IMG/VR virus record: IMGVR_UViG_2698536552_000004
DNA from: a virus
Lineage: Duplodnaviria > Heunggongvirae > Uroviricota > Caudoviricetes
Strand: one strand, 5' to 3'
DNA: 10,259 nucleotides
This document shows positions 4,160-4,469 of this stretch, in pieces. Position 1 is the first letter of the stretch. Every line of letters starts with the position of its first letter. The notes beneath the pieces are model-generated. The model made no database searches. It was not told the DNA's origin and saw only the letters and a list, made by a program, of their open reading frames with translations. A program made the translations under genes and the position numbers.

Positions 4160-4235
4160 NNNNNNNNNNNNNNNNNGTCAGAGCGAGCGACTCATAATCG
4201 CCAGGTCGCTGGTTCAAGTCCAGCAAGGGCCACCA
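4160..4235 (+). tRNA. tRNA with CAU anticodon, ileX-like (tRNA-Ile2 or Met); 5' ~17 nt inside the N-mask, start estimated
   Basis: The visible 59 nt (4177-4235) contain anticodon loop CUCAUAA, T-arm GCTGG-TTCAAGT-CCAGC and the acceptor 3' strand plus CCA. They align to the 3' 59 nt of E. coli ileX as I recall it. The start is extrapolated assuming 76 nt. Confidence 0.7.
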
Positions 4236-4236
4236 A

Positions 4237-4313
4237 CCACCACTAGCTCATCCGGATAGAGCATCAACCTTCTAAGTTGACGGTGCGAGGTTCGAGTCCT
4301 CGGTGGTGGGCCA
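4237..4313 (+). tRNA. tRNA-Arg (anticodon UCU)
   Basis: Manual cloverleaf: acceptor CCACCAC/GTGGTGG, D-stem GCTC/GAGC, anticodon stem TCAAC/GTTGA with loop CTTCTAA, T-arm CGAGG-TTCGAGT-CCTCG, discriminator G and encoded CCA. It resembles the argU-type tRNAs carried by lambdoid and Stx phages. Confidence 0.8.
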
Positions 4314-4315
4314 GC

Positions 4316-4391
4316 GCCGACTTAGCTCAGCAGGCAGAGCAACTGACTTGTAATCAGTAGGTCACCAGTTCGATTCCGGTAGTCGGCACCA
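4316..4391 (+). tRNA. tRNA-Thr (anticodon UGU), thrU-like
   Basis: GCCGACT...AGTCGGC acceptor, anticodon stem ACTGA/TCAGT with loop CTTGTAA, T-loop TTCGATT and encoded CCA. Near-identical to E. coli thrU as I remember it, apart from D-loop differences. Confidence 0.85.
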
Positions 4392-4394
4392 TAT

Positions 4395-4469
4395 GCGGGC
4401 ATCGTATAATGGCTATTACCTCAGCCTTCCAAGCTGATGATGCGGGTTCGATTCCCGCTGCCCGCTCCA
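4395..4469 (+). tRNA. tRNA-Gly (anticodon UCC), glyT-like
   Basis: GCGGGCATCGTATAATGGCTATTACCTCAGCCTTCCAAGCTGATGATGCGGGTTCGATTCCCGCTGCCCGCTCCA folds as a cloverleaf with anticodon loop CTTCCAA and appears identical to E. coli glyT as I recall it. Confidence 0.85.

Follow-up and report, generated by a model that had tools for sequence, protein, structure and literature searches.

The stretch of DNA analysed here (the window, 10,259 nt of the IMG/VR virus record IMGVR_UViG_2698536552_000004, Caudoviricetes) carries an operon of four tightly packed tRNA genes, encoding a tRNA-Ile2 (anticodon CAU), a tRNA-Arg (UCU), a tRNA-Thr (UGU) and a tRNA-Gly (UCC). The prophage it belongs to is phiP27-like and lambdoid, and the array sits in the accessory slot that runs from the Q antiterminator to the lysis genes. 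Most likely, with a probability of about 0.58, the operon supplies minor decoders and thereby raises the translation capacity for phage genes. tRNA genes beside the Shiga toxin genes (stx) of Stx phages have been known for more than 25 years, and their purpose is debated between rare-codon supply and evasion of host defence. The kind of cassette is already known, both from Stx phages and from the tRNA cluster of T4, and the combination in the window is a variant of it; no publication describing this four-tRNA array was found in a literature search. As a single operon, it offers a natural experiment, with two phage-specific tRNAs, one that is identical to its host counterpart and one that is two D-loop bases away from it. 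One of these two differences in the Thr gene has already been implicated in recognition by the PARIS nuclease.

Identification of the tRNA operon

ARAGORN called three tRNA genes in the window, all on the plus strand: tRNA-Arg(UCU) at 4237..4313, tRNA-Thr(UGU) at 4316..4391 and tRNA-Gly(UCC) at 4395..4469. Their scores against the Rfam model RF00005 are 56.4, 69.8 and 64.9 bits, respectively (gathering score 29; E-values of 1e-10 to 1e-14). The first gene of the array, tRNA-Ile2(CAU) at 4159..4235 on the same strand, was called in the window by neither ARAGORN nor Rfam, because its 5' end lies under a mask (3927-4176), which hides positions 4159-4176 of the gene. Its visible 3' part (4177-4235) and the next 360 nt are 100% identical to Escherichia coli FDAARGOS_944 (L001). 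The IMG/VR contig L235 is 100% identical to each visible segment of the window, including 4177-4235, and served as an unmasked stand-in for the masked parts. At 3796-3872 it contains a complete CAU tRNA, found by both ARAGORN and Rfam (70.5 bits), which corresponds to 4159-4235 of the window.

The first-pass annotation of this DNA had described at least four tRNA genes separated by only 1-3 nt, and this description is confirmed by ARAGORN, RF00005 and L235. In the covariance-model scan, which it had named as a check, all four genes (three in the window, the first in L235) are called as tRNAs and exceed the gathering threshold, and ARAGORN agrees. The spacers between them are A (4236), GC (4314-4315) and TAT (4392-4394), i.e. 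1, 2 and 3 nt, and CCA is encoded in all four genes. It had also been suggested that more tRNAs may lie in the flanking masks. This is not the case: both programs find exactly four tRNAs in L235, and therefore no fifth tRNA is concealed beneath them. Since the masks do not have their true lengths (250 N replace 247 nt in mask 1, at 3927-4176, and 249 N replace 506 nt in mask 2), coordinates within and across them are nominal.

An assembly artefact can be excluded, as the array occurs in dozens of complete genomes. The array is not a tRNA fragment of an attP site either, given that four full-length genes lie in the late region, between Q and the holin gene, with no integrase nearby. At a coverage of 80% or more of the window, there is no match among complete E. 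coli genomes or GenBank phages.

Codon usage and predicted expression

Codon usage was compiled for 90 array-bearing IMG/VR loci (646 distinct open reading frames (ORFs), 141,316 codons) and compared with that of the long ORFs in 100 kb of K-12 core DNA (26,375 codons). The host sample was enlarged to this size, the K-12 ribosomal-protein block alone having given a noisy ORF-based table. AUA (3.9-fold), AGA (3.7-fold) and AGG (3.5-fold) are the three most enriched of the 61 codons, followed in ranks 4 to 7 by CGG (2.5-fold), CGA (2.4-fold), GGA (2.3-fold) and ACA (2.1-fold). The primary codons of all four tRNAs are found within these top seven, with a chance probability of about 7e-5 (C(7,4)/C(61,4)). 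The remaining top-seven codons, CGA and CGG, are decoded in Stx phages, where the second position of the array (slot 2) takes a UCG form that reads them. Since the tRNAs of the array read the most enriched codons, rare-codon supply is the best explanation for their presence. The first-pass annotation had not chosen between this function and the replacement of cleaved host tRNAs; the codon comparison favours the former. The Gly gene is exactly the host gene and can therefore act by dosage only.

Directly upstream of the array, a candidate sigma-70 promoter of the stable-RNA type was recognised at 4121..4158 on the plus strand (nominal, in mask 1; L235 3758-3795). It consists of TTGCAG, a 17-nt spacer and TATTAT, and its G+C-rich discriminator runs to the 5' end of the first tRNA. 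When the sequences upstream of the first tRNA were grouped into 11 families that are less than 85% alike over the last 60 nt, TTGC[A/G] (-38 to -34) and TAT[T/C]AT (-15 to -10), with the 17-nt spacer, proved to be kept in 10 of the 11. Stx phage 2851 and phiP27 have the same motif 5' of ileZ. Conservation of the motif across such diverged leaders argues for a dedicated stable-RNA-type sigma-70 promoter, predicted to belong to the array itself. By implication, lysogens may produce the tRNAs even before induction, a point relevant to the expression of acquired genes that are rich in rare codons.

According to the mechanism we propose, transcription would begin at this conserved promoter, about 3 nt before the 5' end of the first tRNA. 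With the Q gene upstream, the array is part of the late region that depends on Q, and after induction Q-antiterminated read-through of late transcription and the amplification of phage DNA would probably add to the supply of tRNAs. As in E. coli tRNA processing, RNase P would cut each 5' end, and the trailers of 1-3 nt would be trimmed to the encoded CCA. The outcome would be additional copies of the minor tRNAs that decode AGA/AGG, ACA, GGA/GGG and, once TilS has formed lysidine, AUA. In lambdoid phage genes such codons are 2-4 times as frequent as in host core genes, so that the operon would boost phage translation.

Several observations weigh against rare-codon supply. Lambda, which has no tRNA genes, has the same codon enrichment; the bias is therefore a property of lambdoid phages at large, which can do without the array, and the array is an optional supplement. 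A stronger codon bias in array carriers than in non-carriers is refuted by this same finding. A comparison of AUA, AGA, ACA and GGA usage with the host had been proposed in the first-pass annotation; the four codons are enriched in array-bearing prophages, and only modestly enriched in the late genes of the window itself, at 4.8, 5.5, 11.5 and 10.3 per mil, respectively (1650 codons). In addition, the commonest sister array has Lys(UUU) in slot 2, while AAA is enriched merely 1.16-fold, and codon supply therefore fails to explain the UUU form. Moreover, the host reference is an ORF-based sample of 100 kb rather than the whole K-12 genome, and the promoter and the processing route are predicted ones.

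Origin of the four genes

The CAU gene is labelled tRNA-Ile by PGAP, and the default label of ARAGORN is Met. Its anticodon together with its ileY-like body identifies it as a tRNA-Ile2, the AUA decoder of the ileX/ileY/ileZ type, rather than a tRNA-Met. The acceptor pairs C4-G69 and C5-G68 are body features of tRNA-Ile2 known from the TilS literature, and the gene has both, as do ileX and ileY. It matches ileZ of Stx phage 2851 at 74/77 positions, ileZ of phiP27 at 73/77 and ileY at 71/77 (92%), with an acceptor stem (GGCCCTT/AAGGGCC) that is the same as that of ileY. Judged by its sequence, the CAU gene is of the Stx-phage ileZ type. The Arg gene matches argN(UCG) of phage 2851 at 64/77 positions, argU at 58/79 (73%) and argO at 46/77, and it has the unusual C1-G72 start of argN. 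In this alignment it is an argN scaffold in which UCU replaces UCG, and it is neither argU- nor argO-like. The gene has A20, C35 and G73, which we take to be identity elements for ArgRS. The first-pass annotation had likened the first two genes to ileX/argU-type tRNAs of Stx and lambdoid phages, which is right for the Ile gene and wrong for the Arg gene.

The closest known relative in organisation is the ileZ-argN-argO operon of Stx phages (933W family, 2851, phiP27). It occupies the same slot, after Q and before the lysis genes, with the same promoter motif (TTGCAA, 17 nt, TATTAT) directly in front of its first tRNA, and shares with the window both the ileZ-type first gene and the argN-type scaffold in slot 2. 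Unlike this operon, the window has UCU instead of UCG in slot 2, lacks argO and its terminator, has copies of thrU and glyT instead and is not followed by stx. Its spacers are 1-3 nt, versus 1 and 13 nt in phage 2851 (ARAGORN-style boundaries; 4 and 16 in the record annotation). The window thus belongs to the Stx-phage cassettes in a looser sense (promoter, ileZ-type first gene, argN-type second scaffold, position between Q and lysis genes) and falls outside the strict set defined by CAU, UCG, UCU, terminator and stx. An exact ileZ-argN-argO set would have spoken against the chimeric origin that the first-pass annotation had proposed, and with UCU in slot 2 and argO absent, the window does not contain one.

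The Gly gene is identical to K-12 glyT at 75/75 positions, and the Thr gene matches K-12 thrU at 74/76 (97.4%), with both differences, U16C and U20C, in the D loop. The earlier statement that the last two genes are near-copies of thrU and glyT is hence correct. Identities of 100% and 97.4% mark them as host-derived, compared to 92% for Ile with ileY and 73% for Arg with argU. Among about 100 surveyed arrays, Thr is host-identical in 66/99 and Gly in 77/98, and the Ile and slot-2 genes form phage-specific lineages.

In the host, thrU and glyT lie in the same operon (thrU-tyrU-glyT-thrT-tufB) and in the same relative order as in the window. They had also been described as neighbours there, but the K-12 layout is thrU, 8 nt, tyrU, 116 nt, glyT, 6 nt, thrT. 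With tyrU and the 116-nt spacer between them, capture of contiguous host DNA alone is insufficient to explain the phage arrangement. The window lacks tyrU, the 116-nt spacer and thrT, and has a different promoter and different surroundings. The phage spacer TAT equals the single T flanking thrU at its 3' side plus the AT preceding glyT; as a match of 3 nt, with a chance probability of about 1.6%, it is weak evidence that the spacer might be a trace of a tyrU deletion.

Thr-Gly pairs without Ile-Arg are found in phi467, JLK-2012, SerU-LTIIb and 14 surveyed IMG/VR loci, and Ile-Arg without Thr-Gly is seen in Stx phages. Since the two halves are found apart elsewhere, a modular, chimeric origin of the cassette is well supported by these sequence comparisons. 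In this respect the first-pass annotation stands. The promoter, the Ile gene and the Arg scaffold would represent an old phage lineage common to Stx phages. Thr and Gly would derive from host thrU and glyT by recent copying or conversion, and would have been joined with the loss of tyrU.

In the Thr-Gly-only arrays (L143, L157, L163, L172, L201 and others), where Ile and slot 2 are absent, the 60 nt upstream of Thr contain a conserved element, GGTTCTGAGGG...CCCGAGGAACCA, about 55 nt long. It ends with CCA, followed by a spacer of 2 nt, and thus resembles a tRNA-like minihelix or a slot-2 remnant.

The T4 tRNA cluster (Gln, Leu, Gly, Pro, Ser, Thr, Ile, Arg) is equally tight, with spacers of 0-10 nt, and includes the four anticodons of the window (CAU, UCU, UGU and UCC), all of which serve minor codons ending in A. 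It differs in belonging to a virulent phage, in comprising eight tRNAs and in having no sequence relationship to the cluster of the window. The Thr gene of T4 has diverged from thrU in the anticodon stem, whereas in the window Thr is near-identical and Gly identical to the host gene.

Distribution and variation of the cassette

Of 5426 complete E. coli genomes, 866 (16%) contain the Thr-TAT-Gly phage junction and 25 the window-specific Arg(UCU)-GC-Thr(C16) junction. At about 16% of complete genomes, any effect of the junction-bearing cassettes on translation, induction or prophage competition would therefore be widespread. Some strains, e.g. CFSAN029787, have multiple copies, with up to six Thr-Gly and up to five Arg-Thr junctions, meaning that several resident prophages carry the cassette in one cell. 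A loose pattern, TCGGCACCA-N(0-12)-GCGGGCATCG, run over genome contigs also matched unrelated tRNA pairs from many phyla; among the matches listed, a locus of Citrobacter braakii (L014) is the sole one of the phage TAT type. In IMG/VR, 95 of the 120 pattern-matched loci have a Thr-Gly spacing of 3 nt, which is TAT in 90. Both genes are intact and canonical in nearly all of the roughly 100 surveyed arrays. The prophage of FDAARGOS_944, which carries the identical array, has a hokD toxin gene and a different, DUF1133-type Q region. An identical array next to different Q regions indicates that the cassette moves among late-regulator backgrounds.

Slot 2 varies widely between prophages. In the IMG/VR loci L129-L247 it consists of one scaffold, with the acceptor CCGCCAC/GTGGCGG (C1-G72), constant D and T arms and an anticodon loop that varies. 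About 47 loci have Lys UUU, in which C33 is unusual, and 22 have Arg UCU; further forms are Phe AAA, Leu UAA, UUA, which is like an ochre suppressor, and non-canonical loops of 5-6 nt. In Stx phages, UCG is found on this scaffold. An unannotated, degenerate slot-2 tRNA-like sequence was noticed in phiP27 (L003, about 5700-5782) between ileZ and argO, where the acceptor (CCGCCAT...GGCGGTCCA) and a T arm accompany an aberrant anticodon region.

Alternative functions

The main alternative to rare-codon supply, a tentative one, is that the array, and chiefly Thr(UGU), sustains translation under a tRNA-cutting defence by replacing cleaved host tRNA during lambdoid growth, with the D-loop changes U16C and U20C lowering recognition by the nuclease. 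Thr(UGU) is indeed a recurrent target. It is the primary lethal target of P2-OLD in P2-lambda interference (PMC12445682) and, with Lys(UUU), a prime target of PARIS AriB, for which Asn(GUU) is secondary (PMC12409363). HepS of Gifsy-1, which is triggered by the lambdoid/siphovirus tail-tip protein J, cleaves Thr(GGU) most and Thr(UGU) as a secondary target (PMC13043305). Lambda is restricted by PARIS (PMC9122126), and sister arrays have Lys(UUU) or Asn(GUU) beside Thr(UGU). AriB cuts between positions 40 and 41, its inactive second monomer is modelled on U16-U17 of the D loop, and E. coli tRNA-Lys carrying U16C is cleaved markedly less well (PMC12409363). The Thr gene of the window departs from thrU at U16C and U20C only, and T16C is the most recurrent change among the distinct phage Thr alleles, in several array backgrounds, while Gly variants are scattered. 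In a metagenome scan, a chromosomal thrU-tyrU with C16/C20 was found in one contig, which is AT-rich and endosymbiont-like; the allele is therefore viable and not the usual host allele. The anticodon arm, however, tells against this explanation. In the window it equals that of thrU and keeps both the CTG/CAG (CNG) motifs of P2-OLD and the AriB site UAAUC|A, so that the OLD and AriB cleavage sites remain. Adding host thrU gives little or no protection from P2-OLD, and the phage Thr tRNAs that resist it have altered CNG motifs or shorter stems (PMC12445682). The Thr genes of T4 and T5 escape through anticodon-stem changes and keep U16, which rules out that either shares C16. Likewise, the known nuclease-resistant phage tRNAs (Lys, Thr and Asn of T5; tRNA-Thr6 and tRNA-Thr21 of a library) include phage-borne Thr(UGU), as in the window with its U16C allele, but their changes affect the anticodon stem, at positions 39-41, in the CNG motif or by a shortening of the stem. 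Measured by its host-type anticodon arm, the Thr gene of the window does not qualify as an anti-PARIS or anti-OLD tRNA. The effect of U16C is known for tRNA-Lys only, Thr is host-identical in 39/47 arrays of the Lys(UUU) type, and the Gly gene is that of the host, with neither Gly(UCC) nor Ile(CAU) among the targets reported in the cited defence papers. A broader and more doubtful version would treat the cassette as a hotspot in the arms race between temperate lambdoid phages and the tRNA-cutting defences of rival mobile elements (PARIS on P4/P2, OLD on P2 and HepS on Gifsy-1). The U16C/U20C copy of thrU would then be an escape allele evading the D-loop contact of AriB, and the anticodon loop on the C1-G72 scaffold of slot 2 would have been rewritten repeatedly to replace or decoy the attacked tRNA; UCG, UCU, UUU with C33, AAA, UAA, UUA and the non-canonical loops may all be counted among such forms.

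Two further explanations place less weight on lytic growth or on function at all. In the case of lysogenic conversion, the array, with a constitutive promoter of its own, would provide the lysogen with minor tRNAs for acquired genes rich in rare codons (virulence genes or those of other prophages) more than it would serve lytic growth. The conserved, Q-independent promoter that abuts the first tRNA is compatible with this, as are the terminator-like hairpin that separates the upstream genes from the array and the frequency of the Thr-Gly junction in complete E. coli genomes, several copies in some. We nevertheless consider it improbable: both the location within the late region and the matching layout that Stx phages have upstream of stx point to induction-coupled expression, and a single extra copy in a lysogen adds little when compared with the amplified copies after induction. 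It is harder still to regard Thr and Gly as neutral passengers, by-products of an illegitimate or homologous exchange with the thrU operon that hitch-hike in a mosaic joint with no selected function. The module boundary does lie at mosaic joints, with flanks that differ between L001 and L235, and many relatives have a degenerate slot 2 in which the anticodon loop is odd. But the near-universal integrity of Thr and Gly in the surveyed arrays, the compact spacing in 95/120 loci, the fit of the four anticodons to the most enriched codons and the presence of the junction in 16% of complete E. coli genomes make such a purely passive origin very improbable. Rare-codon supply remains the preferred explanation.

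Two observations touch the alleles discussed above. On the very AT-rich, endosymbiont-like metagenome contig L252 (Ga0209545_100368, 3386-3741), a thrU-tyrU-glyT-thrT operon was found in which thrU has the C16/C20 D loop of the window's Thr gene; this thrU differs from it outside the D loop, and the tRNAs of L252 have no encoded CCA. The UUU form of slot 2 has C16 and G39-U40-U41, and the AriB site UAAUC|A is therefore absent from it.

Genomic context

The window is 87.6% identical to phiP27 over half its length, and phiP27 has ileZ, argO and stx2e in the same slot. Based on Pfam searches of L235, the gene order is DnaB helicase, RusA, Q, RNA motifs, ORF6N antirepressor, hairpin and the four tRNAs, followed, after about 680 nt, by a P21-type holin, lysozyme, Rz and terminase. 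The Q antiterminator gene is located at 2515..2922 (plus strand; PF06530, E-value 2.7e-52, on L235 2155-2562), the holin gene at 4894-5109 (plus strand; PF04971, 1.5e-35) and the lysozyme gene at 5109-5606 (plus strand; PF00959, 2.1e-45).

Directly 3' of Q, at 2950-3365, Rfam detects c4-a1b1, isrK, C4 antisense RNA and sRNA-Xcc1 (50-77 bits), a module resembling immI of P1. An ORF at about 3247-3966, whose 3' end is masked, encodes an antirepressor-like protein with an ORF6N domain (PF10543, 1.4e-20). Together, these presumably correspond to an arrangement like isrK-anrP of Gifsy-1. The terminator-like hairpin, with its T run, lies upstream of the array at 4045..4074 on the plus strand (nominal, in mask 1; L235 3682-3711). 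L001 and L235 can be aligned from this T run onward, and it is here that the sequence common to the array-bearing prophages begins.

The interval of about 680 nt from Gly to the holin gene (window 4470-4893, with mask 2; L235 4107-4786) has no Pfam-recognisable gene, and a 98-aa ORF within it (L235 4284-4580) has no Pfam match. The same stretch is present in FDAARGOS_944, and in Stx phages this position is occupied by stx. Counting both strands, seven terminator-like hairpins were found in L235 3500-4850, versus 1.7 expected; six are in the interval between the tRNAs and the holin gene and the seventh is upstream of the tRNAs. Finally, the early region of the FDAARGOS_944 prophage (L001 2729-3394) encodes an epoxyqueuosine reductase QueH, a tRNA-modification enzyme.

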